A stretch of DNA of 64,000 bases from Deltaproteobacteria bacterium (GCA_026388415.1 JAPLJV010000004.1:530-64529), one strand, 5' to 3'; numbered from the stretch's first letter, positions 17,344 through 43,825 are shown. Numbers and translations are program-made. The notes: generated from the letters alone by a model not told the origin.

Positions 17344-17426
17344 TAAAAAAGTGCTGAGTTCCGAGTACTGAGTACTGAGTACTGAGTGCTGAGTACTTTC
17401 TTTTACTCAATCCTCAGCACTCAGCA
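17344..17426 (-). repeat. intercistronic palindromic repeat, copy 2 (longest copy, between acsA and acsB)
   Basis: Same core as copy 1, with extra GAGTACT heptamer units (CCGAGTACTGAGTACTGAGTACTGAGTGCTGAGTAC). It lies 7 nt after the acsA stop and 13 nt before the acsB ATG. Confidence 0.8.
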
Positions 17427-17433
17427 TTTGCAT

Positions 17434-19521: not shown

Positions 19522-19534
19522 CTACGCTCCTCCT

Positions 19535-19584
19535 TAAAAAAGTGCTGAGTACTTTCTTTTGCTCAGTCCTCAGCACTCAGCACT
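19535..19584 (-). repeat. intercistronic palindromic repeat, copy 3 (shortest copy, between acsD and acsA)
   Basis: TAAAAAAGTGCTGAGTACTTTCTTTTGCTCAGTCCTCAGCACTCAGCACT. On the mRNA sense AAGUGCUGAGU pairs with ACUCAGCACUU and is followed by UUUUAAGGAGG. The element ends 13 nt before the acsA ATG. Confidence 0.8.
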
Positions 19585-19623
19585 TCTCCTTATATTTCCA
19601 GGCCATGAGCCGTAAAGGGTTCT

Positions 19624-20568
19624 TTACGCGGTAAAATCATTGATCATCTCTCGCACCAGCCGTACCGCTTCGGGGTGTCTCATCACCAGCACATCCGCCC
19701 CGGCCAGAAGAAGCAGGGTCGCGGTCATGGCCTCCATGATGATGCCCCGTCGGGTAGCATCCCCGAGGTGGGGGGCGTCTTCTGTTTTGGCCTTGGCCTC
19801 TTTGGTCTTCCAGACCTCCCCGGCCAGGTTGCAGATGATGGGGAATTGCAGTCTCTCGTCCTGTTGGGTAAGAGCGGCCATACGATCGCGCTCCATTACC
19901 GAGTAGGTATATTCGATTCCGTAACCCAAGCCTCCGGTAGTTGGATCTACTATGAGTTGACGATCCGGCACGCCAAGATTGCCGAGAAGTATGTTGAGCT
20001 GCTTGGCCAGGTTAATATCTATCGGCGTGTTGGCAGAGACGGTATGCTTATAGGCAATCGCGCCGGCGCCGATCTGCTTGTAGTTGTCCGCTACCACCGG
20101 ACCGAGGACCAGATTCATCCCGTCGCTTGCTTCGGCAACTTTGCGTAGTAAATCAGAATCCTTATCGGAGTTACCGCTTCCATAAACAACGACCGGGACA
20201 TCAACCGCCGCGGCCACTTTTTTGGCTGTCTCCGTTGCCTCTTCGCTCGATTTGTTGAGACCATTAGGATCCGTACTGACGAGCTGCAAAGCTATCAGTT
20301 CAGCGCCGTAAACATCTACCGCCTTCTGCGCCCACGCTACCGGATCATTAATAACGTCGAGATAGGGCTCTAATGCCGCCGCCGCCCAATTATCAGGCGC
20401 TACATCGTAAACCTCGATGGCAATTCTCGGGGCGTGGGGCATCTCTCCTTCAAAAAGATGAAAGGGATAGGATGTTTCTCCCCCCACGGTCACGGCTCTG
20501 GCGCCTTTTCCCAATACTACTTCCTTGATCTTTCCCGTATAGACCGCTTTCGGTATTGTGAATGTCAT
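19624..20568 (-). CDS. acsD: corrinoid iron-sulfur protein small subunit
   Basis: 314 aa. The MTFTIPKAVYTGKIKEVVLGKG... N-terminus and TIM-barrel-like body are typical of AcsD/CdhD. Sits in the ACS context. Confidence 0.9.
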   Translation of the reverse strand: MTFTIPKAVYTGKIKEVVLGKGARAVTVGGETSYPFHLFEGEMPHAPRIAIEVYDVAPDNWAAAALEPYLDVINDPVAWAQKAVDVYGAELIALQLVSTDPNGLNKSSEEATETAKKVAAAVDVPVVVYGSGNSDKDSDLLRKVAEASDGMNLVLGPVVADNYKQIGAGAIAYKHTVSANTPIDINLAKQLNILLGNLGVPDRQLIVDPTTGGLGYGIEYTYSVMERDRMAALTQQDERLQFPIICNLAGEVWKTKEAKAKTEDAPHLGDATRRGIIMEAMTATLLLLAGADVLVMRHPEAVRLVREMINDFTA

Positions 20569-20572
20569 TATT

Positions 20573-21472
20573 CTACTCCTTTATGCCTGCTGCCAATTTG
20601 GCCGCCTTAACGGTATTCATCATGAGCATCGTAATGGTCATGGGACCAACTCCGCCTGGAACAGGGGTAATGGCGCCGGCCTTTTCTTTCACGGAGGCAA
20701 AATCAACATCGCCGCACAGCCTGGCCTTGCCTTCCGCAGTCATACCAATCCTGTTCACCCCCACATCAATCACAACGGCGCCTTCTTTCACCATATCAGC
20801 CGTGATGGCGTTGGGCTTGCCGGCCGCAACGATCAGGATGTCCGCCCGCCGGGTATGAAAGGCGATGTCTTTGGAACCGGTATGGCAGATGGTTACCGTG
20901 GCATTAGCCCCTTTCTGTTTCTGTAAAAGGATATTGGCGATGGGCTTGCCCACAATGTTCGAACGGCCGACGACAACCACTTCGGCGCCGCTCGTTTCTA
21001 CTCCCGTACGCATGAGCAACTGCTGAATCCCGGCTGGTGTGCAGGGAAGATAATCAGCCGCGCCGATCATTAGTTTACCCAAATTGACGGGATGAAATCC
21101 GTCCACATCCTTCCGGGGATCAATGGCACAGAGGACTCTTGTTTCATTGACATGCTCCGGCAAGGGGAGTTGCACTAATATACCGTGGATTTTCGGATCC
21201 TGATTATACTTCTCAATCAAGGCCAGTAAATCCGTTTCGGCGACATCCGGAGGCTGGTTGTCCTGCAAAGAGTAAAATCCCAGTTCCCTGGATGCCTTCT
21301 GTTTGGCGGTCACATAGCTGATGGAGGCGGGGTTTTGCCCCACCAGAATCGTTACCAGACCCGGAACGACATTACTTGCTTCCTTGAGCTGCGCCGTCTC
21401 TTCCTTGATCTCTTCCCTGATCTGCGCAGCAATCTCATTGCCGTTGATTAACTTTGCCGTCATATCCTGCAT
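20573..21472 (-). CDS. folD: bifunctional methylene-THF dehydrogenase / methenyl-THF cyclohydrolase
   Basis: 299 aa. LVTILVGQNPASISYV, GILVQLPLP and VVVGRSNIVGKP are FolD signatures. An alternative start is at 21463. Confidence 0.9.
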   Translation of the reverse strand: MQDMTAKLINGNEIAAQIREEIKEETAQLKEASNVVPGLVTILVGQNPASISYVTAKQKASRELGFYSLQDNQPPDVAETDLLALIEKYNQDPKIHGILVQLPLPEHVNETRVLCAIDPRKDVDGFHPVNLGKLMIGAADYLPCTPAGIQQLLMRTGVETSGAEVVVVGRSNIVGKPIANILLQKQKGANATVTICHTGSKDIAFHTRRADILIVAAGKPNAITADMVKEGAVVIDVGVNRIGMTAEGKARLCGDVDFASVKEKAGAITPVPGGVGPMTITMLMMNTVKAAKLAAGIKE

Positions 21473-21483
21473 TTCCTTCTCTA

Positions 21484-22230
21484 TTATAAAATATACTGAT
21501 CAAAAATGCGCCATGCCGCCTGTATCGCTGGAACGGACGCGGGAAGCTGAAAAGTAGGCGTCCCGCTATGGTCAAAGCGGCTGATTTCATCGTCAACAGG
21601 GATAACGCCTGCGAGCACCAGTCCCCTCCTGCCAATTTCTTCCCTGGTATCATCCTGCAGGGGGCCTGTCAGGCGATTCAAGACCAGTACATCTTTGGTG
21701 ATATTCAACTTGAGCTCTCTGATCAGATCGCGGATGCGGGCCGCCGTAATAATGCCGCGGCGGCTGGAATCGGACATGATAAAAAGCAGATCCACATCCT
21801 GAGTTGTCAGGCGGCTGAAATGCTCCATTCCCGCTTCGTTGTCAATAACAATATAAGGGTAGTTTGCCGTCAACATATCTATGTACTTCCTGGCAAGGGT
21901 ATTGGCAGCGCAGTAGCAACCCGCGCCTTCCGGTCGCCCCATTGCCAGCAGATCAAAACCCCTGGCTTCCGTCAAGGCTTCCTGAACCTTATATTCAAAC
22001 CACACATCTTTCGTCATGCCGGCGGGAACTTCCTCTTTCATCGCCTCGCGCATTTGGCCGATAGTGGTCTTGACGTCAATGCCCAGCACTTCATTAAGAT
22101 TGGCATTGGCGTCGGCATCCACCGCGAGGACAGGTCCTTTATTTTTTTCCAGGAGGTAACGAATGACCATGCCCGCAAAGGTAGTCTTGCCCGTTCCTCC
22201 TTTTCCCGATACTGCGATGGTAAAACTCAT
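21484..22230 (-). CDS. cooC: CODH/ACS nickel-insertion accessory ATPase (CooC/AcsF family)
   Basis: P-loop AVSGKGGTGKTT and a CxC motif (GAGCYCAAN). 248 aa. Confidence 0.85.
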   Translation of the reverse strand: MSFTIAVSGKGGTGKTTFAGMVIRYLLEKNKGPVLAVDADANANLNEVLGIDVKTTIGQMREAMKEEVPAGMTKDVWFEYKVQEALTEARGFDLLAMGRPEGAGCYCAANTLARKYIDMLTANYPYIVIDNEAGMEHFSRLTTQDVDLLFIMSDSSRRGIITAARIRDLIRELKLNITKDVLVLNRLTGPLQDDTREEIGRRGLVLAGVIPVDDEISRFDHSGTPTFQLPASVPAIQAAWRIFDQYIL

Positions 22231-22246
22231 GATCTATACCGCCCCT

Positions 22247-22317
22247 TAAAAAAGTGCTGAGTTCCGAGTACTGAGGACTGAGTACTTTCTATTACTCAGT
22301 CCTCAGCACTCAGCACT
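22247..22317 (-). repeat. intercistronic palindromic repeat, copy 4 (between the RACo gene and cooC)
   Basis: TAAAAAAGTGCTGAGTTCCGAGTACTGAGGACTGAGTACTTTCTATTACTCAGTCCTCAGCACTCAGCACT. The perfect 12-bp inner stem is GAGGACUGAGUA/UACUCAGUCCUC. The element ends 16 nt before the cooC ATG. Confidence 0.8.
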
Positions 22318-22347
22318 TCTCCTTAACAAAGTTCTGGATTCCGGTTT

Positions 22348-24351
22348 TCACCGGAATGACGATTTTTGGGCATTTTCCCTGCTCAAATGCAGCCGCTCCT
22401 GTACCTTCGGAAAGGCTGACGCATCAGTGTGGGGCAGAAACAGTGCCGCCATAAATTCATTCATGAAACCGCCGTGATTGCTCAATTCCAGATTGGTCAT
22501 CATGAGTGAGATCCTTTCCGCTTCCTTAAGCAGATCTTGCGAAAAGGAAAGCAGCCGGGCACCCAGCAGGGAACCGTTGCCGACAAAGATGAATTTGCTG
22601 ATCTCCAATTCCGGCAATAAACCTATAAAAATAGCCTTTTCCAGATCGAGATGTCGGCCAAAGCCGCCGGCTATAATGACCTGCTCCAGATCCTTGAAAC
22701 CCAAGCCCAGACTTTCCAGTAGTATCTTGCAACCGGCATATATGGAACCTTTGGTACGGATGAGGTTTTCGATGTCAATCTCCGTCAGGACAATATCTTC
22801 ATGAATTTGCGTTTGTTCTTTGTAGGCCAGCACGTATTCATAACCGTCCCCTCCCCTCCTTACCCGCCCGGTCGGAAGATCGAGGCGAAACTTGCCATCT
22901 TGATCAATAAGGCCTGCCTCCAGCAGTTCGGCTACAATATCAATCAAGCCTGATCCGCAGATGCCGAGTGGCCTGGTGCGGCCGATGGTCAAGATCATCG
23001 GTTCACAGGTGTGCGGGTTGATACTGACTTCTTCAATGGCGCCGCGGGTCGCCCGCATGCCGAATTTTATCCCTGCTCCCTCAAAGGCCGGTCCCGCTGA
23101 GCAGGAAACACTGGCCAGCCAATCCTTGTTTCCCAAAACAATCTCCCCGTTGGTGCCAATATCCATGTAAAGGGTCAAGGCTTCCCGCTGGAAAATGCCG
23201 GAGCCGAGTACGCCGGCGACTACGTCACCGCCTACATAACTGGCCACCGATGGAAAGATATACATATAAACATGTTCGCCGATATTGATGCCCAGATGGA
23301 CCGCTCGTACCGGGGGGATAAAATTGGCGGTGGGCACATAGGGGGCCTCCCGGATATACTTCGGGTCAACGCCCAACAGCAATTGCGTCATGGTCGTATT
23401 GCCGGCTACGACGAGATGGGAAATCAAGGCGCGATCAATGCCGCTCATTTTCAGAAGCTCTTCAATAATGCCATTGATCGTTCCCACCACCGTTTGCTGG
23501 AGCTTCATTAGACCGCCCGGTTTCTGAGAGTGGACGATCCGGGTGATAACGTCTTCTCCGAAATTTATCTGGGCATTATAATCAGAGGCCTCGGCGAGGG
23601 CAAAGAGAGTTGCGCCATTACAGTTACCATCGGGGCAAGCGACAACCTTGCATTCGTTAAGATTGAGGATCTGACCGAAAACAGTGGTGGTGCCGATGTC
23701 CAGTACGATCGAGTAATTCTGCTGGCAATTGTCTCCGGCCGCCACGTTGATTAATTTTGCTCCCTTTATGGTCAGCACCAGGGTAACGGTTACCTTCCAA
23801 TCCGCCTCCCGCAGCAGGCGGCTTAATTTCATAATTACCCGGAAGTCGGTGGAAATGCCGTTAATGCCATGCTGGCGATTGATGGCACGAATAAGGCGCG
23901 TCAGATCGCTGACATTATCGCCCAGAGAAGGAGGCTCTAATTCCACATATATTTTAAATACCGAAGGGTCAACATCCCAACCCTGCACTAATTGGTAAAT
24001 GTCTTTTGGAGAAAGAAGATAAGAGGCAAGGCCCCGATCGCCCTTGAGTGCCAGCGTAGATCTGTCAACCTGCGATTCCGGAGGGATTTCGATATCCACC
24101 GGAGCGATTACGGAAGTCAGGCAAGCCAGCCGATAGCCGTCTGCGTACTCAAATGAGGACAACTTGGCATGCAGCGGCGAGGCGACCAAACCGCCGCTAA
24201 TCCTGACCTTGCATTTGCCGCAGTTTGCATTGCCACCGCAGGAGGCATTGATATGTATCCCCGCGGCCATAGCCGCCTGAAGAAGGTTCTCTCCTTCATC
24301 AACGGAGATGGCTCTCTCGCTGGGATGGAATGTTACCTGATATTTCCCCAT
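22348..24351 (-). CDS. reductive activator of the corrinoid Fe-S protein (RACo-like; [2Fe-2S] ferredoxin domain plus ASKHA ATPase)
   Basis: ORF 22348..24405 trimmed to [25 protein letters not shown]-terminal [12 protein letters not shown] ferredoxin motif and a long ASKHA-like body. Alternative starts are at 24378 and 24405. Confidence 0.8.
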
Positions 24352-25135
24352 CACCTGAACAATCCCTCTTTTTGACATTGATGTTGTAGATGATGCGCAA
24401 ACCATCTAAAGTCAGCATCTGTTCCACTACGTCAATAGTTGCCGTCTGCGCAGCAATGACAGTTGCCAGCCCCCCTGTCGCCACCACCAGAGGATTGCCG
24501 TCCACTTCCTTTTTCATACGCCCCACTATGCCGTCCACCAGGCCGGCATAGCCGTACATAATGCCGGCCTGCATGCTGCTCACGGTATCCTTGGCAACAA
24601 TGTTCCTGGGTTTGGTAAGTTCCACTCGCGGCAGTTTGGCGGTGCGTTCAAACAGAGCTTCCGTGGAGATCATGATCCCTGGTGCGATGCATCCGCCCAT
24701 ATATTCACCCTGGGGAGATATATAATCAAAAGTGGTGGCGGTGCCGAAATCAACGACGATCAAGTCCCGCGCATACTTATTGTAACAGGCGACGGCATTA
24801 ACAATGCGATCGGCGCCTACTTCCTTCGGATTATCGTAAAAAATCGGCATGCCCGTCTTGATACCCGGGCCAACAATCATCGGTTTGATATTAAAATATT
24901 TCCGGCACAGAGGTTCCAGGATATTCAGCATGGGCGGCACGACACAGGAAATAATGATATCCGTAACCGCCTGCGAACTGAGGCGGCTTGACTTATAGAG
25001 ATTGTAAATAAGGATGCCGTATTCATCTACCGTATGACTGGCATTGGTGCGGATTCTCCAGTCATGCACCAGTTCTTCGCCATCGTACACACCCAAGACG
25101 GTATCGGTGTTTCCTACATCCATGACTAATAGCAT
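24299..25135 (-). CDS. coaX: type III pantothenate kinase
   Basis: [17 protein letters not shown] start and FGTATTFD are CoaX signatures. A C-terminal tail of about 25 aa overlaps the RACo start. Confidence 0.85.
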
Positions 25136-29568: not shown

Positions 29569-30729
29569 TCAGAATTTCAGTTCTTCCTGGATTTTTCTGA
29601 TATAAAGCAACGCATCTACGCCAGGCACGTCACCTAAGGGCGCAAATTCCCCGGACGTAAAATCTTTTACCCCCATGATCTGCCTTGTGGTAACAACCAT
29701 AACGGCGTTGAAATAAGGAAGATCGGAGCGCAAATCCGGGAAAGGCGAGGTCTGGCCGATAAATTTTGTCGCCAAAGTATTATCGCCCGTCACCTTGATG
29801 AGAATGTCTTCCAGCATCATGGCATAAGTAGCACGATCAATATTCTCTCCTGGATGGAATAAACCATCAGAGTAAGTCTCCAGCCCACGTACGCCAACTC
29901 CCAGAATTCCTTCTATATCTACCTTTAAGGGATGATCGGCAATATCTTTGGGCATTGCTGCCGCTGCGGGGGCATTCTTCGCCTTCTCGGGATCCTTGAA
30001 AGAGGTATCGAACGTTTTAATACTGCGCTTCTTGTATAAAACGTCAATTTTAAGCTCTTCCATAAACAAGGCAGCCACATCGGCCCGGGTAATGCGCTGC
30101 AGGAGGGCAATCTTTTTACCGGCTGCTGTTCCGGGCATGGCCCGCAGGATCTTCTGGATCAGATTCCATGAGATATCGGCGTCCTTTACATATTCCTTCT
30201 TCAGATCAATAACTTTCCGGAACATCTGACCGGCCTGTTCAAAGTCCTGTACCGATATGTAGGCAATACCCATATAGTAATAAGCGGCTGAAGACTGCTT
30301 GTCAATCTTGACAGCACGTTCGAATTCATCGCGGGCGTCATCCAACCATTTACCGCTCATACCCTTGTAAAAAAGTCTTATCCGCGCGATGTGTACAAAT
30401 AATTTTTCCTCTTTGGTGTTGGCATTGCTCCAGGCCTTTTTAATCGCCTCGGCGGCTGCGTCATGATCACCCGTGTAGGCCTTGACCAAGGCAATCCCGG
30501 CATGGGCTTGAGAAAACTCGGGGGCTATCTGGATGGCCAGAGTGAACTCCCGCTCTGCCTCTATATATTTGTCCTCTTCGAGTAAACGCAGGCCGGCAAC
30601 ACTATGGTGTTCCGGTGTGTCCATCGCGCTGACAGGCTTTCGTAATTCCGGCGCACAAGCAAGCATTGCCATCGTCAAACAAATTAACACAACCGATAAT
30701 ACCGATTTTCTGATCTTGAACCGTTTCAT
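29569..30729 (-). CDS. lipoprotein with TPR repeats and SLH-like C-terminal repeats
   Basis: Lipobox MAMLAC; TPR-like N-terminal half; two segments resembling S-layer-homology motifs (ITRADVAALFMEEL, IDRATYAMMLEDIL). Confidence 0.65.
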   Translation of the reverse strand: MKRFKIRKSVLSVVLICLTMAMLACAPELRKPVSAMDTPEHHSVAGLRLLEEDKYIEAEREFTLAIQIAPEFSQAHAGIALVKAYTGDHDAAAEAIKKAWSNANTKEEKLFVHIARIRLFYKGMSGKWLDDARDEFERAVKIDKQSSAAYYYMGIAYISVQDFEQAGQMFRKVIDLKKEYVKDADISWNLIQKILRAMPGTAAGKKIALLQRITRADVAALFMEELKIDVLYKKRSIKTFDTSFKDPEKAKNAPAAAAMPKDIADHPLKVDIEGILGVGVRGLETYSDGLFHPGENIDRATYAMMLEDILIKVTGDNTLATKFIGQTSPFPDLRSDLPYFNAVMVVTTRQIMGVKDFTSGEFAPLGDVPGVDALLYIRKIQEELKF

Positions 30730-33672: not shown

Positions 33673-33703
33673 GACCGCAGCACCTTGACAGGTATCTGCG
33701 GTC
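33673..33703 (-). terminator. candidate intrinsic terminator of the 10-kb envelope operon
   Basis: On the minus sense GACCGCAG-N15-CTGCGGTC is followed by UUUCAUAUCU, about 30 nt after the stop at 33736. Confidence 0.5.
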
Positions 33704-33735
33704 CTCATTTGCTTAACCAACTGAACAAATAAATA

Positions 33736-34659
33736 TCAGTCCAAAACGATCATGACACGGCATTTCTTCATAAAGGACAGGTTATCAGCGGCTGATCTGA
33801 GCGCGGCAGCATCAGCATTACTGATTATGATGTCGGATTTCCCCGCTCCTTGCGCCCTGATAGCCTTGACCGTAAGAGGATTGTTGGTTACGCGCTGATT
33901 ACCCTGCGCCGACGTCAAATCACGGGCATATCCGCTCATGCCCTGCTGGACGGCAAATTCCCGCTCCACTATCACGGAACCGTAAACTTCCTGACCATTT
34001 TCATCAAGAATCTTCGGCGACATCGCCGGTCGCGTCTGCATACCACGCGCATCTACCACCATGCCCGTGTAAACCGCCCCGGAAGATGGCTTTCTTGGCT
34101 CGGAAGTGTAGGAACGGCCTTGCGGTGCAGTTTGAACGGGAGGCGCAGGAGGTGTTACCTGCGGCTGCGCAATTGGTTTTTTCTCCAATGCTTTCGGCAT
34201 GATGGCCGAAGAAAAGTCACCTAAAAGGGGCATGCGCACCGTGACCTCAACTGAGCCATCGGACATATAGTCCTGTTTTACCACCACCGCCCCTTTTACG
34301 ATACCTTCAACCTGGCTGTTGATGACATCGCTCTCGACGACAAAATCCTTCACTAAAGTTGTCGAGTCAATTCTTACCCCCTTGGTAGTTTCAAGCAGAT
34401 TCCTTTTTGCCACAAGTTCAGCGGCCCGCAAGGCCATGGGGCGGGCCTGAATCTTGCCGATAAACCGCTCCGGAGGAGCTCCAATGCCCACTGCTTCGAT
34501 ATATCCGGCTGACCAATTGATACTCCCGGTGCCAACTTTTTCGATGATCTGTTTCCAATCCGACATACTGACAGTATCTTCACAAAAAACCGTATTTGTT
34601 GATAAGATCAGCAGTCCCATAACCAACAGAGCAACAACGTAACGTAACTTCATTTTCAT
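33736..34659 (-). CDS. secreted LPP20/FlgP-like protein with a Pro-rich linker and an uncharacterised C-terminal domain
   Basis: Signal peptide; GYIEAVGIGAPP...ARPMALRAAELVAKRNLLETTKGVRIDS...DGSVEVTVRMPL fits the LPP20-family pattern as I know it; PQVTPPAPPVQTAP linker. Confidence 0.6.
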   Translation of the reverse strand: MKMKLRYVVALLVMGLLILSTNTVFCEDTVSMSDWKQIIEKVGTGSINWSAGYIEAVGIGAPPERFIGKIQARPMALRAAELVAKRNLLETTKGVRIDSTTLVKDFVVESDVINSQVEGIVKGAVVVKQDYMSDGSVEVTVRMPLLGDFSSAIMPKALEKKPIAQPQVTPPAPPVQTAPQGRSYTSEPRKPSSGAVYTGMVVDARGMQTRPAMSPKILDENGQEVYGSVIVEREFAVQQGMSGYARDLTSAQGNQRVTNNPLTVKAIRAQGAGKSDIIISNADAAALRSAADNLSFMKKCRVMIVLD

Positions 34660-34684
34660 TCCTCCCTACTTAAGTTATTGATAC

Positions 34685-37432
34685 TTATTCTTTAAACGCC
34701 TTTTCTTCTGCCCTCTCCAACCAGGGCTTGATATTTATGCTGTCATCATTATTCTTCAATATGTAATTATCATCAGGCGGAGCGCTGCCCCACCAATTGT
34801 ATCTCGCGTCTATATATATGGTAGAACGCGCCTGTATGGCAAATGTGTTTTTGAGGAAATTATTGTAATTGATAACCGGTCTGGACATACCCACACTCTG
34901 GATGGCGGCCTCACCATCGTTATTCAAAAAGGTGCTGTATGTAATTTTCGGCGCGGCGTCATGACGACAGAATACGCCGTTTTGGGAATTATTAGCGATC
35001 AGACAATAGGAAATCTCCGGCGCTCCGTAGTGAATATCAAAGGCCGTCTCGGCGTATTTGACAACACAGTAGGAAAAAGCGCTATTTACCTTGGTCTGTT
35101 TGGTGAACCGGACTGCGGAGGAGTAAGAGCCAGGCAGGAGAGATTTTGCCGAGGCAGTGAAAATAATGGGCAATTCCTTCGTGCCTTTGGCCATCACACC
35201 GCCATCCTCCACCGTGATCGCTCTCCCCTGGTCGTAAAGCAGGGTAACGCCCGGTTCGATGTAAAGGGTAGCTCCATTAATAATAACGATATCTTTGGCT
35301 ATCCGGTAGGGACTGTTAGAGAGGATAAGGAAGGAATCTTTGTCAACAGGTCCGCCTAACTGGGAATCCAGAATGGGCAGCTTGATGGGTTTCCCGGCGG
35401 GCTTATCACCATCAAGAATCGCGGCGATATTAACTTTTCCCCTGATCCGCGCCAGAATGTTAATTCCGCTGACCGTTCCCCACCAGTTTTCCAGCGCCTG
35501 AACAGGCTCGCCGGACATATCGGCCTGCATATCGAGTGGGCTGTTGTCCAAAATCTTGTTTCCCGTAATAACGGCATTGCTGGCTTGCACCCGGATGCCG
35601 ATTCCTTGATTACGGGCAATAACATTATCCCGTAGTAATGGAGAAGATGACTCAATAACAACACCCTCCCGCAGATTATCGCTGATCGTGTTTCCCGATA
35701 ATTTTGGCTGGGCGCCGTCTCGAATCAATACGGCGTTTTGCATGTTTTTGTGGATGGAGTTACGCTGCAATTCCGGCCGGGAAAAAGCGCCCACGATCTT
35801 CAGCGCAATCAGGTTCGCCGTTAACTCGGAATCTTCTACGCGTGGTGAGGAAGCTTCGCAACTGATGGCCGTCTTGGCATTTGATATCCGCAAGTAGGCC
35901 AATTGCTGTTCTTTTTCTTTGGTGTTTATAAATAATATACCCTCCCAGACCTTTCCCTCTTCTGTGGAAGTTAAGGTTATCAGATGCTCTTTAGTTCCTC
36001 TGGCCTTGATCTGCCCCTCAATAATTAATCCGCCTCCCGAGGAGCGGACTTCCGTGCCCGGCTCAATGGTCAGTGTCGCCTTGTCTTTGACCAATATGGT
36101 TTGATCAATGATATATGGGCTGGCGCCGGAATACCAGGTGGTATCGGCCTCAATGGGACCATTTACGGCAGTAGGACCGGGTGCGATCGGCAAGCCAATA
36201 ACAGGGTCAATTTTTTCGCTTTCATTTCCCGCCCAGTCAATGGCCGTCAGGAAATAGTAATATTTCTGACCATTAGTTACTTTATCATCGCGCCATTCAT
36301 TTACCTCGCTTCTGCCCACTTCCTGGAAACCTGAAAGTGGAGTTAAGCTGCGGTAGAGGCGATACCCCGCCAGATCAGTTGCCGGAGATTTGTCCCAGTT
36401 CAGGAGCAACAGATTGTTTCTCCCGACTGTTTGCAGGTTATTAATCTTATCCGGAGGTGTGGTATCAAGCGTCACGGTACCGAGAGCATCTACCCATTGC
36501 GAGGCATTGCCGGCATCATCGGCAAGATATCCGACAATCATGGCGTGAGATACGTTATCGCCGGGCAGGACTTTGTATGTGCCGAGATACCAGCCCGGTT
36601 CCATTTCCTGCATGTCAATGTGCTTTTTGAATTCACCGATGTCAAAATAGGCTTGCATTTTCGGCGCGCCCTGGATGACGACGTTGATCACGTCGCCAGC
36701 TTTTTTGGGCAAGTTTTTCGTATCCTGGGTTAAAAGTGAAATTACGGGCGGGCGCAGCGCTTCCGCGATGGTCGGAACGGGTATCGTTTTAACCATATCC
36801 CGGAAGAGGTCGTCACAGGCCCGTAGCAACTGAATGTCGCGAACATTCATCGCGGTCGCAATCACGGTCGCAATAATGCCGAAAGGTGTGACAGAGAGGC
36901 CGCCCTCATGGATTCTTACAGTGTGCTGTCCGCTCCAGAGGAAATTGCCGGTTTTAGTGTCATACATCTTAATCTCTGCCCCTACGGCAACCTGTGAGTA
37001 CATGACCGCAAACAGCTTGTCAAAATTAGATATCTCGCCAAATACGACCGCATCAACATTCAGTAACTTACCCAATTCCTGGGGTGAAGTTTTATATAAC
37101 GCCTCAGTGTCCCCAAGGTTGGCCTTGCTTAGCAGGTTATCAACCCTTTGCAGTTCCATATCCTTAAAGGGAAGAGAACTGAAATGGTTATAAAATCCTT
37201 TTCTTACAGCCACAGCGCCTTCTTTTTTACGAGACTGATCTATAAAAGGCAGAACGGCTACCGTAACTGGTCTGTGACCCTCCATATATGGGTCAACGAT
37301 AGATTTCCCCTGAAAAAGGTCTCTGATCACGGGTGTGATGACCGTAGTCTCGGTAGCAACCACACAGCTCTGTATGCTGATCATGACCAGTAAGATCCCC
37401 AACCATGAAACTTTACTTAATATCTTTGCCAT
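34685..37432 (-). CDS. lipoprotein: DUF799-like N-terminal module, Ig-like domain, Fn3 domain and two parallel beta-helix regions
   Basis: ORF trimmed to the ATG at 37432 (MAKILSKVSWLGILLVMISIQSC lipobox). VTVAVLPFIDQS...DAVVFGEISNFD...KMYDTKTGNFLW is DUF799/CsgG-like. One Fn3 (LNWDKSPATDLAGYRLYRS...YYYFLTAIDWAGNES). PbH1-like repeats (GNTISDN..GVVIE..DNVIARNQGIGIRV). Confidence 0.7.
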   Translation of the reverse strand: MAKILSKVSWLGILLVMISIQSCVVATETTVITPVIRDLFQGKSIVDPYMEGHRPVTVAVLPFIDQSRKKEGAVAVRKGFYNHFSSLPFKDMELQRVDNLLSKANLGDTEALYKTSPQELGKLLNVDAVVFGEISNFDKLFAVMYSQVAVGAEIKMYDTKTGNFLWSGQHTVRIHEGGLSVTPFGIIATVIATAMNVRDIQLLRACDDLFRDMVKTIPVPTIAEALRPPVISLLTQDTKNLPKKAGDVINVVIQGAPKMQAYFDIGEFKKHIDMQEMEPGWYLGTYKVLPGDNVSHAMIVGYLADDAGNASQWVDALGTVTLDTTPPDKINNLQTVGRNNLLLLNWDKSPATDLAGYRLYRSLTPLSGFQEVGRSEVNEWRDDKVTNGQKYYYFLTAIDWAGNESEKIDPVIGLPIAPGPTAVNGPIEADTTWYSGASPYIIDQTILVKDKATLTIEPGTEVRSSGGGLIIEGQIKARGTKEHLITLTSTEEGKVWEGILFINTKEKEQQLAYLRISNAKTAISCEASSPRVEDSELTANLIALKIVGAFSRPELQRNSIHKNMQNAVLIRDGAQPKLSGNTISDNLREGVVIESSSPLLRDNVIARNQGIGIRVQASNAVITGNKILDNSPLDMQADMSGEPVQALENWWGTVSGINILARIRGKVNIAAILDGDKPAGKPIKLPILDSQLGGPVDKDSFLILSNSPYRIAKDIVIINGATLYIEPGVTLLYDQGRAITVEDGGVMAKGTKELPIIFTASAKSLLPGSYSSAVRFTKQTKVNSAFSYCVVKYAETAFDIHYGAPEISYCLIANNSQNGVFCRHDAAPKITYSTFLNNDGEAAIQSVGMSRPVINYNNFLKNTFAIQARSTIYIDARYNWWGSAPPDDNYILKNNDDSINIKPWLERAEEKAFKE

Positions 37433-37454
37433 AAATGGCCTCCTGCTTATCTGA

Positions 37455-38252
37455 TTAGGCTTGAAAGACCCTGACTTTTTCCAAAGGCTTGCCATTGTCT
37501 CTCAGTACCTTGCCGTGGCCCGGATAAATAGTTTTACAAGCTATTGACCGGCGGAGCATTTCATAAGAGCTGGTCAGTTTCTTTCGATCCCAGTGAAAAC
37601 GATTCAACTCACCGGGGCCGTTTTCGTCGCGGTTAATTATTAAATCACCACAGATCAACTCCTCCGAAGAAGCATTAAAAAAACATACCGAATCCTCTGT
37701 ATGACCAGGCGTTTCAAGATATTCCCATTGATCAAAGCCGAGAAGAGTGCCCGGCGAAGTTGCCGCTGTCGCGAGCGGCTGCCGTTCTGATGCCGGGCCG
37801 AAATATGAAATCCGTTGCCTGTAGGGTATGTTGATAATATTTCTCAGGACGGGCAAGGGAATGCCCGCCAGTCCGGCAAACCCCAGATGGGATATCTTTT
37901 TCACCTGACCAAACCCCACAATAGCAGCTGGCAAAAGACCGCAGCACCAATTACGGATGAGGGAAAGCTTTTTTCTTCCTTCCAGATAACTTTTCACCAG
38001 TTGGTGAAATAACACCTTAGTCGTTGGCGGGCATTTTTTCAGTAGCACCGCGATCCCGCCTATGTGATCAATATGAAAGTGCGTCGCCGTAATGCATTTC
38101 ACCATATCGAGGGACATACCAGGCTGATTATACAAGTAATCCTCCACGTCCTGTGCCGCGCCAATACTCCCCACGTCAACAACCATCAACCCGCCTGACT
38201 CGGAAACGACATATGTATTAGCAAAACCACAGTTGGGAATCTTATGAACCAC
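37455..38252 (-). CDS. MBL-fold metallo-hydrolase
   Basis: The ATHFHIDHIGG (HxHxDH) motif. 265 aa. No signal peptide seen. Confidence 0.8.
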   Translation of the reverse strand: MVHKIPNCGFANTYVVSESGGLMVVDVGSIGAAQDVEDYLYNQPGMSLDMVKCITATHFHIDHIGGIAVLLKKCPPTTKVLFHQLVKSYLEGRKKLSLIRNWCCGLLPAAIVGFGQVKKISHLGFAGLAGIPLPVLRNIINIPYRQRISYFGPASERQPLATAATSPGTLLGFDQWEYLETPGHTEDSVCFFNASSEELICGDLIINRDENGPGELNRFHWDRKKLTSSYEMLRRSIACKTIYPGHGKVLRDNGKPLEKVRVFQA

Positions 38253-38298
38253 AAAACAGCCCTCTTCACATTCATCTGCCTGAAAACTCTAAAAAAAG

Positions 38299-40554
38299 TT
38301 AACGTCCCGTAACGGTTAATTCCCGACTGGGATTGCTTTCGAGGCCGTCTGCATCAACCGTGGTAATCAGATAAGTCTTGGTTTTGCCTTTGGGCGGCGA
38401 GGTCTCGCTGAAGGTATTGGTCTTTTCGTCGGCTATCTTTTCGTTGCCGAAGAATTTTTTTTCATACACACTGTAATTAGCTATATCAGGCTCACGACCT
38501 CGATCCCATTTGAGAATAACCTTACCATTGCGCACATCACCGGATAGACCGGCGGGACTATTTGGTCGAGGCTTGGTAGGTATTTTTACGGTCTCCGAAA
38601 ATTCGCTGATGAGGCCGTCCCGGTCTTCCGCCCGGAGTTTGTAACTATAGGACACGCCATCCTGCAACTCCTTGTCCACATAACCCGTCCGGGCAGGTAT
38701 TTTAGCAACCTGCTTAAAGTCGCCTCCTTCGGAACTCAGTCGCCATAAATGGTAAGTTGAAATATCATTCTCCGGATTAGCTCCCCAGGAAAGGGGGACT
38801 TCCTTCACCTTCAGGGATTCACCCTTAAGCCCCTGCGGGCGTGAAGGCCGGGACTTTGTTGTCGCAGAAACCTCTACCGATGGACTTTCAATATCAACCT
38901 TGTTATAGCACGTTAGACGATAATAGTACTTGCTGCCATCATCAAGCCTGGTTCCGTCCTCATCAACAAATTTATTATTGTTTCTGCCCTCCAGCTTTTT
39001 TATCAGCAAAAATTGACCATCACTCTGCCTGGCGGCATATAGTTTATAGCCTTCCACATCCTCGGTGTTACTGGGAGTACAACTGATTTCGATCTTTTTA
39101 ACGAGTCCGCTAACGGCACGAACATTTTGAGGTGCGGACGGCTTACCCTTCGTGATCGCTGCAACGGTAATTTTCGAAGCTGTTTCCGCTGTTGAAGATT
39201 CAAACACCGTGATGCGGTAGAAATAACGTACCGAGTCCGCCAGACCGTCTATGTCCTTGTATTGAAGTTTTTTTTCACTCGCGTTAGCAGGCTGATCAAT
39301 CACTGCAATCTTCTTGAACCCATCATTTTCCATCGTAGAGCGATAAACATTGTAACCTTTGATATCAGGGCCCTCAAGCGCCGCCCAGGACAGCCTGACT
39401 TCTCTGACCAGATCGCCTTGAGCGTAAATGTTGGTTACAGGCGATACGGTAAGGCCTCTTATGGGAGACGAGTATTCGCTTTCCAAATTTTTTTCATTGT
39501 AGGCGGTTACTTTGTAATATGTTGTTTCTCCGTCGGCAAGCCCCTTATCCGTAAAATCTACCTTGAATATTCTATCGAGGGTGGTGGCCGTATCCACACC
39601 AATGCCCAGATCCTTACCCACAATATTAGCTACTTCTTTATACGGGCCTGGCTCGTTTTTGGAACGGTAAACCTTGTATCCTCGCAATTTCAACGGATCG
39701 CTGCTGCTCATGGGGCTTGGTGTCCACGTAATCTGGATACTCCGAATATGACTTTCCGCTTTCAAAATTACCGGGGAATTGGGTGTTAATACTGTTTCGG
39801 CAAAAAAAATCTCGGAGAATTCACTGCGGGCGCCTTTTTCATTATAGGCTCTGATTTTGTAGTAGTAGAGGACATTTTTTTCCAAATTCTGATCCACATA
39901 TTCCGGTACCGTCACTTGGGAAACCTTGGCGTAGGGACCAGACTGGTTCGTTGCCCGGAATATCTCATAAGACACCGCCATGGCCGGCCCATCCCAGCTC
40001 ATCTGTATCTGTTTGTTGCCCGGACGCACGATAATGTTGACAGGACCGGAAAAATCGGCTTGTCCATCGCTACTGTGAGCACTGATAACAGTTGAGACAA
40101 GCGCTTTACTGAGATCGCTTATTTCACTACCCAGACTGGCGTCGCCGAGCGATCTTATCTGCTTGGAAAAGATGACTTTTTTCTGTTCTATACCAATGGC
40201 ACGGCAATTGATTAAGAGGATGGCACCCTTCTTTTCAACCGATCCTACCACGATCAAATTTAATCCGAGACGGGTGCCGATATTTATTACATTGTCCAAT
40301 TTATCATTTTGCTGCAGGTCATTAAGAGTCATGAATGCTTCCAGGTCCTTACGGTCGAGAACGTTCAGGCTTCGCTCGGAAGTCAGCGAAGTAAGAAGCA
40401 TATTTGTTACGGCGGTCCCCTGACCGGAAGCCTCCATGTTCACCGTTTGAAAATTGAAAATCGCCATCTTCACGGGCGCTGCCGTCGCCACTTCCGTCAG
40501 ATAGAAAATGGCAACTATCAACAACGATATAAAAGCTGCTGCTCTTTTAACCAT
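38299..40554 (-). CDS. secreted protein: CsgG/FlgO-like N-terminal module followed by six Fn3 domains
   Basis: Signal peptide ending ATA-AP. VKMAIFNFQTV...LDRKDLEAFM...LIVVGSV module. Six repeats, each with a W/Y...YRS/YRA...YYYK/YYYR pattern. Confidence 0.7.
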   Translation of the reverse strand: MVKRAAAFISLLIVAIFYLTEVATAAPVKMAIFNFQTVNMEASGQGTAVTNMLLTSLTSERSLNVLDRKDLEAFMTLNDLQQNDKLDNVINIGTRLGLNLIVVGSVEKKGAILLINCRAIGIEQKKVIFSKQIRSLGDASLGSEISDLSKALVSTVISAHSSDGQADFSGPVNIIVRPGNKQIQMSWDGPAMAVSYEIFRATNQSGPYAKVSQVTVPEYVDQNLEKNVLYYYKIRAYNEKGARSEFSEIFFAETVLTPNSPVILKAESHIRSIQITWTPSPMSSSDPLKLRGYKVYRSKNEPGPYKEVANIVGKDLGIGVDTATTLDRIFKVDFTDKGLADGETTYYKVTAYNEKNLESEYSSPIRGLTVSPVTNIYAQGDLVREVRLSWAALEGPDIKGYNVYRSTMENDGFKKIAVIDQPANASEKKLQYKDIDGLADSVRYFYRITVFESSTAETASKITVAAITKGKPSAPQNVRAVSGLVKKIEISCTPSNTEDVEGYKLYAARQSDGQFLLIKKLEGRNNNKFVDEDGTRLDDGSKYYYRLTCYNKVDIESPSVEVSATTKSRPSRPQGLKGESLKVKEVPLSWGANPENDISTYHLWRLSSEGGDFKQVAKIPARTGYVDKELQDGVSYSYKLRAEDRDGLISEFSETVKIPTKPRPNSPAGLSGDVRNGKVILKWDRGREPDIANYSVYEKKFFGNEKIADEKTNTFSETSPPKGKTKTYLITTVDADGLESNPSRELTVTGR

Positions 40555-40582
40555 TTCATTCCTCCGGCGCTTTACTTTACCT

Positions 40583-42568
40583 CTACTTGTCCTGAATCAA
40601 TTTATTGATGCTTTCCTGCGATTGTTGTGAAATTGGTGTCGTAATGCTCTTGAGCTTTTCATCGAACGCGGCATCGGTATATTTTTCCACCGCCTGTTCG
40701 TAATTGCGCCTCTTTTCATACTGTTGAGCGTCATTGAAATATTCTACTTCCAGACTCTGGAATGGCTTGAGGACACTTTGACCGACCTCGGATATCTTCG
40801 CGTTGGTCAGTTCATCAATAACCTCCAGCTCCGATGGAAGGGTCAGAGGATCGTGGGGAATATTGGCCAGGGCAACACCATCCTGATACGCATCTTCCTT
40901 TATGGCTTTACCTGATGTTGTATTAGTAAACATATTTTCACCCGTCGTTGTGTTGACGAGTTTGTACGACACCTCTATCATCGCCGTGACTTTGGCAACA
41001 CCCCGTTTATAGGAGATGAATTGATAAGTCGGTTTTCTGATCGTGCGCGAGGGTGCATGGGCCAATTCTTCCCTACTTGGCTTGGGGTTAAGCATTCTCC
41101 AATCGGAGAATTCGGGGTTAGGCACATCTTCTTCATTCACGAGCACCTTGGCCTGGCCGGTGCTGGGACTGTCCGCATAGTTGGTAGAATATTGCATGAC
41201 ATCACCCATGATGAAGGTATCAATGCCCCGCATTTTACCCATACTTTGAGCTGTTTTAATATCCACCAGACCGGTCTGTCCAAGTTGCATTTCTCTCAAA
41301 ATATTTTCCAGATTCGCTCTTTCAATGATGCGTAAATCACCACTGGCATTCTTATGCAAAAAAGCAGTCAATTTATTGGCGGCAATCTTGCCGGCGTCTT
41401 TATTATTGCCTGGCGAACCGAATTCAAAGACGGCAATGGATTTTTTTATTCTCTTGTTGATGCTATCTCGGGCATCCAACAGTTTTTGGAACAAGTTAGG
41501 GTAGCTGGGATTAAACATCTCCGCCTTTTGCAGCCAGATATAGGCATTGCCCCAAAGCTCCTTTTCCGCATACTTCTCCGATCGCTCCATCAATTTAGCG
41601 CAAAATTTACCTATGAATTCTCTGTAAACCGGATCACTCTGCATCGTCGGTGTATAGTTCCTGGCAGAGTCCAGCAGGCTCATCGCCTTAAAAAGGACAC
41701 CTTGATTTGCCAGCTTGACGGCGTCGGAAAAATATATCTGGCTAACCTTAACCTTCATTGATTCTATCTTGTTGCGGAGGTCTTGGTTATCTGCTTGATA
41801 TTCTGAGGCTTTTTCCAGCATCATAATTGCCCGGTCCCAATTTTGGTTGCGACCAGCATTCTCCCCCTCGGCGATATAGTACTGGATATTGTCCCGATCC
41901 TGTGCCTCTTGATAAAGCTTGGCCACGTCATAATAATTCGGGTTAATCTCAATCAGCTTTTTAAAAGTCTGGACAGCCAATTTCCAGTCTTCCTGTTTTC
42001 TTAAAGCCATTCCCTGCTGGTATAAACTTTTTGCTCCCTCCTGCTCCACCTTTGTCAGCCGGGCGCCGGTATCTTCGTAACTCGGATATATCTTGTTTAT
42101 CTGCTTGAGTTTTTCAGCCGCTGCCGACCAGTCTTCCTTCTGCATATCCGCATCGGCCTGCGCATAAAGTGACTGGAGCTTGCCTTTTAAAATTGAAATT
42201 TTCCCTGCCAGGCTGGTGGCAAACGACTCAATTGTTTGATTAAGCGGATCAAGTCGGCGAGCCTTTTCCGCAGTCACGCTGATCTGCTCCAGGCTGGTTA
42301 AATTCTGATCGGATGCTGCAATCAGTGCCTGCCTGGCTTTTTCATAAACGCTTTTGGCAGCTTCCTGATTGGCTTTACTGAGGGCATCCTTGTATTCTTG
42401 ATTGCCCGGGCTTTCACTCAAAGCCTTTTCAAAATAAATGGCCGCCTCTTCCCAGCGTCTCCCGCTGGCCAGTTCCTGTCCCATTTTGTAACTCTCGCTT
42501 ACAACGCAACCAAAAAACATAAAAACGACAAAGACCAGCAGACTTGTTCCATATGTACTCTTTTTCAT
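40583..42568 (-). CDS. lipoprotein: long TPR array followed by a C-terminal CsgG-family domain
   Basis: Lipobox MFFGC. About 340 aa of TPR-like repeats. Then SIAVFEFGSPG...LRIIERANLENILREMQLGQTGLVD...GIDTFIMGDV...YKLVNTTTGE, a CsgG pattern. Confidence 0.7.
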   Translation of the reverse strand: MKKSTYGTSLLVFVVFMFFGCVVSESYKMGQELASGRRWEEAAIYFEKALSESPGNQEYKDALSKANQEAAKSVYEKARQALIAASDQNLTSLEQISVTAEKARRLDPLNQTIESFATSLAGKISILKGKLQSLYAQADADMQKEDWSAAAEKLKQINKIYPSYEDTGARLTKVEQEGAKSLYQQGMALRKQEDWKLAVQTFKKLIEINPNYYDVAKLYQEAQDRDNIQYYIAEGENAGRNQNWDRAIMMLEKASEYQADNQDLRNKIESMKVKVSQIYFSDAVKLANQGVLFKAMSLLDSARNYTPTMQSDPVYREFIGKFCAKLMERSEKYAEKELWGNAYIWLQKAEMFNPSYPNLFQKLLDARDSINKRIKKSIAVFEFGSPGNNKDAGKIAANKLTAFLHKNASGDLRIIERANLENILREMQLGQTGLVDIKTAQSMGKMRGIDTFIMGDVMQYSTNYADSPSTGQAKVLVNEEDVPNPEFSDWRMLNPKPSREELAHAPSRTIRKPTYQFISYKRGVAKVTAMIEVSYKLVNTTTGENMFTNTTSGKAIKEDAYQDGVALANIPHDPLTLPSELEVIDELTNAKISEVGQSVLKPFQSLEVEYFNDAQQYEKRRNYEQAVEKYTDAAFDEKLKSITTPISQQSQESINKLIQDK

Positions 42569-42611
42569 GCGTGCCTCCCTTAAATGGCAGTATTTGTGAG
42601 TAAGTAAATTG

Positions 42612-43742
42612 TTATCGTGGTTGCGGCAAAAAAATGGCCTTTACCATGTTCTGCGTAATGGCAGATATCTTCAATTTACGTCCCTTCATAACGAAGACGG
42701 AAAGGTCATCAGCTACTCCCTGAATATCGCCCTTAACTTCAATATCCAGCTCGACGGTCCCCTGCTGATAGCTACGTTGATACAAAACTTTAAACCCTTT
42801 CAGAACGAGTTGCAGGTGATCCTTGAAACCTACCAGATCCTGATATTCGTCCAAACCGGAAACCACTAATTTAATGGTGGTGGTGTTGGTAAGTTCAGAG
42901 GACCAGCGTTCCAACGTATCTTCCAGGATTTTCCCGGCCAATTTGCCGGCTGCCTCCTCTGCGAGGCGGCTGATGTCTCCCTTAGCGCCCGGCACTGATT
43001 TAGACTCACTGCCGGTGGTAATAACATCTCCGGTATCGCCATTGATTACCTTTACGGACACACTGACCTTATTAGTAAACATTTCAATGCCGCTGACCGT
43101 AAAGGAATTACTCACGGCCTCAACGGAGCCGAAAATTACAACTTCTGCTCCGTAAGTGCGCGCCAGATTGGACAAGGCTTTTTCGTTAGTTGCGGAAACA
43201 GCCACATTGATTTCACCGCGGCTCTTCTTGACAATTGATGAATCAACAAGTTTAAAACCCTTCACGAGGAAGAACTTGCTCATGGCGGCCTCCGCGATGG
43301 CGTCCTTCTGTCCAGCCTCGTTGAAAACAACCATCAGGCGAGGCCTTGATTTCCTGCTTATGAGGAGTTGCATAGCCTGCAGGCGGTCCTGCAATTTGCC
43401 GGCCCCCACCTCTGCTTCAACGTTAACCTCATAGTTATCGCCCTCCCTTTTTTCGGACAGGATGCGATAATTTTCAACGAATCCCTTGGATTCCGAGAGG
43501 ATACGATCCATCTTGAGCTGGAAATTCTCGACCTCCGTGCTGCCGGTAACCATTACCCCCACTACCTTTTCCACTACATTGCGCAGTGCATTATCAATGG
43601 CCTTGTCTCGGGCAATATCCACAATATTGTTGTGAATTGTGGCCATGCCTACGGCACGGATCTTATTGTTTTCCTGGGCTGCCCAGGTAAGCGTCACCCA
43701 AGTAAGGCACAACAACACAATCAGGCAGACTATTTTTTTCAT
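42612..43742 (-). CDS. secreted FlgT-like three-domain protein
   Basis: Signal peptide ending TWA-AQE. IRAVGMATIHNN..ARDKAIDNALRNVVEKVVGV... is an LPP20/FlgT-N-like domain, followed by middle and C-terminal domains. The assignment is by pattern only. Confidence 0.55.
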   Translation of the reverse strand: MKKIVCLIVLLCLTWVTLTWAAQENNKIRAVGMATIHNNIVDIARDKAIDNALRNVVEKVVGVMVTGSTEVENFQLKMDRILSESKGFVENYRILSEKREGDNYEVNVEAEVGAGKLQDRLQAMQLLISRKSRPRLMVVFNEAGQKDAIAEAAMSKFFLVKGFKLVDSSIVKKSRGEINVAVSATNEKALSNLARTYGAEVVIFGSVEAVSNSFTVSGIEMFTNKVSVSVKVINGDTGDVITTGSESKSVPGAKGDISRLAEEAAGKLAGKILEDTLERWSSELTNTTTIKLVVSGLDEYQDLVGFKDHLQLVLKGFKVLYQRSYQQGTVELDIEVKGDIQGVADDLSVFVMKGRKLKISAITQNMVKAIFLPQPR

Positions 43743-43796
43743 GTCATCAATCCATTTCTCATATTCAGTGCGTGCTTAACTGCTAACTCTACTCGA

Positions 43797-43825
43797 TTTA
43801 TAGGTCAATATACCCGGGCTGTCAA
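43797..43825 (-). promoter_or_regulatory. near-consensus sigma70 promoter of the envelope operon
   Basis: Minus sense: TTGACA (43825-43820), a 17-nt spacer, then TATAAA (43802-43797). This lies about 55 nt upstream of the ATG at 43742. Confidence 0.5.

Follow-up and report, generated by a model that had tools for sequence, protein, structure and literature searches.

A non-flagellar operon of FlgT-, CsgG/PelC- and FlgP-like envelope proteins as a candidate periplasmic scaffold in Syntrophales

Rings of FlgT, FlgO and FlgP are textbook examples of parts that the flagellar motor gained late, from a source that has yet to be traced. [quoted passage not shown] In Campylobacter jejuni, FlgP forms concentric rings via a hairpin, and ring formation within the FlgP family correlates with the presence of this hairpin insert (PMC12222027). 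FlgT shares one common α/β core with PqiC-, LptE-, PelC- and CsgG-like lipoproteins (PMC13631591). Here we analyzed a stretch of 64,000 nucleotides (nt) from a Deltaproteobacteria bacterium (GCA_026388415.1, JAPLJV010000004.1:530-64529), hereafter called the window, in which an operon at positions 33673-43825 encodes relatives of these proteins in a non-flagellar context. We tentatively propose, at slightly less than even chances, that this operon specifies a scaffold of rings or tethers, anchored in the OM, located in the periplasm and separate from any flagellum.

Six open reading frames (ORFs) of the same direction, P1 to P6, run from 43742 to 33736 on the minus strand with gaps of 22-46 nt. 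All six were present where a first-pass annotation of the window had placed a co-directional gene set (aa, amino acids; SPase-I, signal peptidase I; MBL, metallo-beta-lactamase):

42612-43742, minus strand: P1, 376 aa, secreted with an SPase-I signal; FlgT-like
40583-42568, minus strand: P2, 661 aa, lipoprotein; TPR array and CsgG-core module
38299-40554, minus strand: P3, 751 aa, secreted; CsgG-core module and six Fn3 domains
37455-38252, minus strand: P4, 265 aa, MBL-fold hydrolase
34685-37495, minus strand: P5, ORF of 936 aa, lipoprotein; GNA1162/PelC-like module, Fn3 and two beta-helix regions
33736-34659, minus strand: P6, 307 aa, secreted, non-lipidated; FlgP-like domain and Tp0624-D2-like domain

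Signal sequences were recovered in five products, the number previously credited with signal peptides or lipoboxes. Those of P1, P3 and P6 are of the SPase-I type, and the lipobox Cys is conserved in P2 and P5 only.

P1 gave a Pfam match to FlgT_N (1.2e-10, 42 bits versus a cut-off of 28.8), and the Pfam models FlgT_M and FlgT_C gave none. The protein is composed of three domains, namely an N-terminal SHS2 domain that is FlgT_N/FlgP-like, a middle domain that is TolB_N/CsgG/PelC-like, and a C domain. Foldseek searches with the AlphaFold2 (AF2) model, which has a predicted local distance difference test (pLDDT) score of 75.5, returned FlgT of V. alginolyticus as the best match (8z5n_0 and 3w1e, E ~5e-12) over ~400 aligned columns, with only 12-13% identity in the structural alignment. 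For the middle domain, FlgT was followed by GNA1162, CsgG and PelC. As modeled, P1 is a full-length FlgT-like protein with the three-domain FlgT architecture. It also resembles the NCBIfam family LipL46, at a level below the cut-off of that family (3e-15).

A common α/β module links P1 to three other products. The C-terminal region of P2 (P2C), the N-terminal domains of P3 and P5 (P3N and P5N) and the middle domain of P1 (P1M) were interrelated at 45-64% probability in profile-profile comparisons. P2C, P3N and P5N matched the canonical CsgG and the GNA1162 protein of a simpler gene cluster, described below, at 87-99.5% probability. The module had been noticed before in three products; it is real, but four carry it, since P1M also contains one. 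Comparison by hhalign likewise links the N-terminal domain of P1 with that of P6 (94% probability).

P6 had no Pfam or NCBIfam match and stayed below the LPP20 gathering threshold. The profile built from its orthologues matched every solved FlgP chain in the PDB, including those of C. jejuni (9hmf_C, 8.8e-12), V. cholerae (6e-8) and V. alginolyticus (4e-7), which bears out the earlier FlgP/LPP20 assignment. With the match of P1 to FlgT, the two products that had been set apart as FlgT-like and LPP20/FlgP-like were both correctly recognized. The P6 homologue in one related locus (L003) reached 31.1 bits with Pfam LPP20 (threshold 25.9), and those of L072 and L073 also carry LPP20. Residues 54-131 of P6 align without gaps to residues 70-147 of C. 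jejuni FlgP, hairpin segment included, and the SHS2 domain (aa 54-143) keeps, as judged from this alignment, the FlgP-type hairpin insert. A Pro-rich linker then leads to a C-terminal domain (aa ~190-307, 33739-34092) that has no Pfam model and that matched Treponema pallidum Tp0624 (5jir_B, 6.3e-6) at the residues of domain D2. Tp0624 D2 was reported as a previously uncharacterized fold without analogues, forming one integrated unit with D1 (PMC5104382). In several orthologues, S, A or G takes the place of the Cys found in the signal peptide of P6, and this lack of conservation indicates that P6 is not a lipoprotein, unlike FlgP. The AF2 model of P6 is poor (pLDDT 56). The family comprises 5411 clusters at 50% identity, 1098 of which lie below 1e-30, and extends to Treponema Tp0624 and Methylomirabilis; the members that were looked up are unnamed or called "hypothetical protein".

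The remaining carriers of the α/β module are fused to long arrays. P2 consists of a TPR array of ~350 aa (TPR_1, 1.9e-11), a CsgG-core α/β module (aa 385-480; Pfam CsgG 2.8e-12, 46.8 bits versus a threshold of 20.8) and a conserved C-terminal extension, and its lipobox (L-A/F-G-C) is kept in 52 of 59 orthologues. In P3 the CsgG-core module comes first (aa 24-170), and six Fn3 domains located with a self-built hidden Markov model follow at 168-751, a region that also gave titin and PTPR Fn3 matches. When taken alone, P3N reached 21.7 bits with CsgG (cut-off 20.8), and 17 of 21 P3 orthologues matched this family. The first-pass annotation had called these products CsgG/FlgO-like, of which the CsgG part holds and the FlgO part does not: only 2 of the 21 orthologues matched FlgO, weakly (best E 0.0043), and one faint precomputed match to FlgO was found among the related loci. 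A relationship to FlgO (Pfam PF17680) is barely supported by these matches. Profile searches of P3N and P2C against PDB sequences returned nothing significant, with CsgG at the top for P3N (E 0.35), and no FlgO chain appeared among the results; the solved FlgO is 9YDS. A lead to Myxococcus TraC for P2 (NCBIfam, 1e-12) was dropped, the only reported matched stretch being the TPR region; TraC is a TPR lipoprotein with an uncharacterized C domain (PMC8546572).

The extent of the CsgG matches bears on the possibility of a pore. Of the 210 positions in the Pfam model, the match takes in 37-157 for P2 and 36-98 for P3. Alignment with canonical CsgG by hhalign spans ~90-110 residues (for P2 at 94% probability, aa 375-464 only), and P3N, with ~150 aa, is too short for a complete CsgG fold. 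In these alignments, what P2 and P3 share with CsgG is its N-terminal core (first 90-130 residues) and not the part whose two hairpins form the 36-strand membrane barrel, which makes a secretion pore of CsgG type unlikely.

P5 exceeded the threshold of the Pfam GNA1162-like family (PF05643/DUF799; 5.6e-11, 42.8 bits versus 25.9), it matched 4hrv in the PDB (3.6e-5), and a lipobox was found by regular expression in 26 of 37 orthologues, in agreement with the DUF799 assignment made before. The GNA1162/PelC-like module (aa 74-217) aligned with the stand-alone GNA1162 of the simpler cluster at 99.5% probability (hhalign). A single Fn3 domain lies at 349-443, and a Beta_helix match (4.3e-22) was obtained together with NosD; a second parallel beta-helix region was also found. 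The distinct extensions described for the three fusion proteins (TPR; six Fn3; Ig, Fn3 and two beta-helix regions) were recovered except for the Ig domain, the beta-rich stretch of P5 at ~250-350 having no family match. The longest P5 ORF has 21 extra 5' codons (37432-37495) that overlap the end of the MBL gene. The true start, as read from the sequence, is probably M22 at 37432 (MAKILSK...QSC lipobox). The MBL gene product itself, P4, matched Pfam Lactamase_B (9.7e-18) and lacks a signal peptide. It is a cytoplasmic MBL-fold hydrolase encoded by an optional accessory gene.

Conservation was assessed with one scan of species-representative genomes, which yielded 69 loci, nearly all from Syntrophales, Syntrophaceae or Smithella metagenome-assembled genomes. 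The window itself comes from an uncultured metagenome-assembled genome with relatives in Syntrophales. Synteny in these relatives is strong. P2 and P3 follow P1 in 51 of the 53 sufficiently long loci. Thirty-nine loci extend 9 kb or more beyond P1 on its downstream side; of these, 28 have the order P1-P2-P3-(MBL)-P5-P6, six contain P1-P2-P3 alone and five are partial. The MBL gene is present in 6 of the 28 complete loci. In 22 loci, the orthologues of P3 and P5 are separated by a small, conserved secreted ORF of ~100 aa (e.g., L071, 15711-16004, and L001, 11074-11496), which replaces the MBL gene or accompanies it. This ORF has no family match and is absent from the window, where the MBL gene alone occupies that place. 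In Smithellaceae-type genomes, the P1-P2-P3 block was found apart from the P5-P6 block, and a 5.17-Mb genome has P5-P6-mutL-miaA without P1-P3 nearby. This indicates that the operon is made of two separable blocks.

In other Thermodesulfobacteriota, a simpler seven-gene cluster linked to mutL-miaA encodes an LPP20-like protein, a TPR(-SLH) lipoprotein, a FlgT-like protein, GNA1162, a full-length CsgG (8e-34, nearly the whole model covered), a PEGA protein and a FecR protein, and a pgsA-like gene ends this order. Homologues of the operon products were found in it at 100% probability for P1 (full length) and P6, 99.5% for P5N, and 94% for P2 and P3, the last two to CsgG. These comparisons indicate that the Syntrophales operon is a rearranged, domain-expanded version of the simple cluster. 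Counterparts of the PEGA and FecR proteins among P1-P6 were sought by profile comparison and none was found. Desulfobacterales-type loci such as L003 hold the simple cluster and the P1-P2-P3 triad side by side. Two proteins of the simple cluster have look-alikes in Leptospira: the FlgT-like one resembles LipL46 (4.5e-21), and the FecR one LipL45 (3.8e-13).

Two further observations concern this cluster and its relatives. In an Acidobacteriota locus (L068, 2320-4468), a FlgT_N+CsgG-like protein adjoins a CsgG+FlgT_C protein, which shows, at the level of domain matches, a shuffling of FlgT domains with the CsgG core across adjoining genes. A gene for a pgsA-like CDP-alcohol phosphatidyltransferase lies directly 3' of the FlgT-like/CsgG cluster in L072 (14037-14567), L073 (14361-14894) and L068 (4473-5087); this adjacency could reflect a functional tie with the synthesis of phospholipids, or it could be fortuitous.

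Comparison with the simple cluster also draws attention to a gene of the window that is located beyond P6:

29569-30729, minus strand: TPR + SLH-like lipoprotein gene, 386 aa, split from P6 by mutL-miaA

The encoded protein is 49% identical over its full length to that of the TPR-SLH gene found right after the P6 homologue in L003, and its SLH match reached 22.3 bits (cut-off 20.8). In L072 and L073 the TPR-SLH gene lies between the LPP20-like and FlgT-like genes, and in L070 after mutL-miaA. Gene 29569-30729 is probably, on the strength of these arrangements, a seventh member of the set. Since it is kept with the cluster from beyond mutL-miaA, the functional unit would extend outside 33673-43825. 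The view of a self-contained six-gene operon has to be given up for this reason, and also because the MBL gene is rarely present and the remainder splits into two blocks.

Two sites that may act as transcription signals flank the operon:

43797-43825, minus strand: promoter-like site, TTGACA-17 nt-TATAAA, inside the 168-nt gap between nlpD and P1, read from the sequence
33673-33703, minus strand: terminator-like hairpin with an 8-bp GC-rich outer stem, inside the 95-nt gap ahead of mutL

The near-consensus promoter reported at 43825-43797 is present in the sequence. Allowing at most one mismatch, TTGACA-17-TATAAT occurs at 2 sites in the 64 kb versus 0.27 expected, and no shuffle reached two; the second site (TTGACA...TATACT) is at 932-960 on the minus strand. 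A generic promoter/terminator scan of the window gave no excess over chance and listed neither operon site; the site at 43797-43825 was missed because its -10 element ends in A. The hairpin, GACCGCAG...CTGCGGTC at 33703-33673, is stable (region fold of -28 kcal/mol, z = -5.3), but the U tract after it, UUUCAUAUCUAUC, is weak. Both sites are plausible as signals, judging from their sequence and position.

The surroundings of the operon are those of an envelope and housekeeping region. On its 5' side, the window encodes LolCDE-like proteins, BamA, Skp, LpxD/A/B/K, MsbA, two heptosyltransferases, a GmhB-like protein, Pcm and NlpD, in agreement with the envelope neighborhood noted at first (nlpD and the lipopolysaccharide (LPS)/Bam/Lol block). 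On the 3' side it encodes MutL, MiaA, the TPR protein of 29569-30729, ValS and NadC. The annotated flanks of homologous loci are likewise housekeeping (pcm, nlpD, LPS genes, mutL, miaA, valS, pgsA-like and thrS), and one Smithellaceae-type locus has genes for RND efflux, patatin, an M24 peptidase and a radical SAM protein in its flanks. No flagellar family was found in the annotated flanks within the window, within ~10 kb at any annotated homologous locus, or in the flanks of the Smithellaceae-type locus; the remark that no flagellar genes were in view extends in this way to every annotated homologous cluster. Elsewhere in the window, the region ~12000-24500 has a G+C content of 0.51-0.58 versus about 0.46-0.50 in the remainder. 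Among its genes are one of the Prismane/CO-dehydrogenase family (17434-19521) and one for a RACo-type corrinoid activase (22348-24405), a content that suggests a Wood-Ljungdahl block.

The characterized relatives of these proteins all form assemblies close to the OM. The assembly that these homologies point to would be organized as follows. P2 and P5 would hang as lipoproteins from the inner leaflet of the OM. The α/β modules of P2, P5, P3 and P1M would pack side by side, as in the CsgG, PelC, PqiC and FlgT/FlgO rings under the OM, and P1 and P6 would add SHS2 domains with the hairpin segment that in FlgP builds the continuous beta-sheet of the ring. Three extensions would reach from this platform through the periplasm towards the peptidoglycan: the TPR array in P2, the rod of six Fn3 domains in P3, and the arm of Fn3 and beta-helix in P5. 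The separately encoded TPR-SLH lipoprotein may anchor the assembly to the wall, an attachment that its SLH domain suggests. The role would be one in envelope architecture, either tethering or spacing of the OM and the wall, or docking of a periplasm-spanning machine. The analysis shows which genes are present, what they are homologous to, which export signals they encode, and that they are conserved in a non-flagellar context; from this we infer that the products oligomerize into rings, how the extensions are oriented and what the assembly does for the cell. The simplest location for the Fn3 and beta-helix arrays is the periplasm. With no translocator in view, display of these modules at the cell surface, or adhesion, is without support. 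The alternatives originally offered, a non-flagellar OM-anchored scaffold or a secretion/adhesion apparatus, are thereby narrowed: the non-flagellar envelope context stands, whereas a CsgG-type pore is unlikely and surface display unsupported.

Several points weigh against such a scaffold. Ring formation is deduced from homology alone, and membership of the α/β superfamily need not mean rings, since LptE works as a single copy; we know of no ring role for LpoB. P6 is non-lipidated, unlike FlgP, and the flagellar-gene survey covered ~10-kb flanks and the annotated parts of the window. Beta-helix domains are commoner in polysaccharide-active proteins than in pure scaffolds. The hairpin regions of P1 and P6 are of low confidence in the monomer models, which is uninformative either way.

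An alternative that we consider unlikely is that the operon encodes the periplasmic/OM part of a pathway for exopolymer export or modification, comparable to Pel, alginate or curli/holdfast. In such a pathway, the TPR lipoprotein and PelC/CsgG-like rings would guide the polymer, the beta-helix of P5 would bind or modify it, and the synthase and pore would be encoded elsewhere. PelC and CsgG are indeed among the best structural matches to the common module, the simple cluster has a full-length CsgG that could act as a genuine channel, and genes for a sugar-nucleotide epimerase and a glycosyltransferase lie a few kb away in L072 and L073. The combination of TPR, lipoprotein and beta-helix (NosD/Beta_helix) recalls AlgK/AlgG and PelB/PelC. 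However, neither the window nor the 69+ loci contain a glycosyltransferase synthase, a porin, a cyclic di-GMP receptor, a curlin-like substrate or CsgE/F. No csgE/csgF or curlin substrate genes were found in the window or the related loci, and no pel genes (PelB porin etc.) or DUF4810 at any locus examined, GNA1162 adjoining CsgG in the simple cluster. In addition, the barrel-forming part of CsgG is missing from the P2 and P3 alignments, and the flanks are housekeeping.

It is less probable still that the products are OM-anchored regulators of peptidoglycan synthesis or cleavage that reach through the wall, like LpoA (TPR) and LpoB (TolB_N-like). P2 is lipid-anchored and has both a TPR array and a TolB_N-like module, the operon is preceded by nlpD, and the Fn3 rods would be long enough to span the periplasm. 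LpoB was matched weakly by P5N and by two stand-alone proteins of the simple cluster, GNA1162 and CsgG, but every LpoB score is far below the family cut-offs. Moreover, regulators of this kind leave the FlgT-like and FlgP-like proteins unexplained, and the adjacency to nlpD is not kept in many loci.

We also regard as improbable, to a slightly greater degree, that the genes encode co-transcribed yet functionally independent envelope proteins with no joint assembly. The separation of the P1-P2-P3 and P5-P6 blocks in some genomes, and the coming and going of the MBL gene and the small ORF, would fit this. Against it, the same five homologous families occur together across Thermodesulfobacteriota in two different gene orders and two degrees of elaboration, which is hard to explain without functional coupling. 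Least credible of all is that these are ordinary H-ring/basal-disk accessory genes of flagellated Syntrophales placed away from the flagellar regulons: FlgT, FlgO and FlgP are the nearest characterized relatives, NCBI names the P1 homologues [quoted passage not shown], and the survey was one of flanks, but no flagellar gene lies within ~10 kb at the annotated loci or in the annotated parts of the window, the fusion architectures and an unlipidated FlgP-like protein with an extra domain are unlike described motor components, and the P6 family is very large (5411 clusters), reaching Treponema Tp0624 and Methylomirabilis. The literature on flagellation of Smithella or Syntrophus was uninformative.

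A periplasmic scaffold encoded by this operon could have a wider meaning. It is conceivable, though rather unlikely on present evidence, that Thermodesulfobacteriota possess a non-flagellar housekeeping organelle of the envelope, built of concentric OM-tethered periplasmic rings of FlgT-, CsgG/PelC- and FlgP-like proteins and predating the recruitment of H-ring and basal disk. If so, this organelle would be the pre-existing machine recruited as the Vibrio H-ring and the Campylobacter basal disk, and its most elaborate version would be the one in Syntrophales, where pillars of Fn3 and beta-helix would span the periplasm. Given how far the P6 and FlgT-like families reach, some spirochaetes, Acidobacteriota and Methylomirabilota might have it as well. 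The conserved gene set, which co-encodes FlgT-, CsgG/PelC- and FlgP-like proteins outside a flagellar context, makes such recruitment testable by phylogeny and cryo-electron tomography. It also points to an uncharacterized envelope structure in syntrophic bacteria that are important for methanogenic carbon turnover, and gives genomic context to two large unannotated families, the two-domain family of P6 and the D2 domain of Tp0624. In the literature on DUF799/CsgG/LPP20, GNA1162/DUF4810, LipL46/PEGA and non-flagellar FlgT/O/P, no description of the operon or of the simple cluster was found. The building blocks themselves are already known; what is new is their co-occurrence outside a flagellar context, the TPR, six-Fn3 and beta-helix fusions, and the architecture that joins a FlgP-like domain to a Tp0624-D2-like domain.

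Comparison with the closest systems shows likeness and difference in each case. The operon and the simple cluster have one-to-one homologues and a linkage to mutL-miaA in common; the version in the window lacks the PEGA, FecR and full-length CsgG proteins, adds the TPR/Fn3/beta-helix fusions and differs in gene order. With Tp0624 (PDB 5JIR), the operon shares the D2 homology of the C-terminal domain of P6, a protein that, unlike Tp0624, has no OmpA-like domain. The TolB_N-like core present in P1M, P2C, P3N and P5N, together with the lipid anchors of P2 and P5, is as in PelC/PelB, CsgG, PqiC and GNA1162, and the TPR array of P2 recalls PelB as a TPR partner. This is, however, in contrast with the PelC, CsgG and PqiC systems in that a partner porin, an MCE tube and curli genes are absent and the modules are fused to long arrays. 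The operon differs from the H-ring and the basal disk in its non-flagellar context, in the non-lipidated P6 with its extra Tp0624-D2-like domain, and in a link to FlgO that is faint at best. The TPR, 6x Fn3 and beta-helix fusions are not among the motor components described (10.64898/2025.12.02.691832; PMC12222027). In common with the H-ring and the Campylobacter-Helicobacter basal disk, P1 corresponds to FlgT over three domains and the N-terminal domains of P6 and P1 match FlgP. As in the Vibrio H-ring, a soluble FlgT-like protein is co-encoded with OM lipoproteins that bear small α/β modules.

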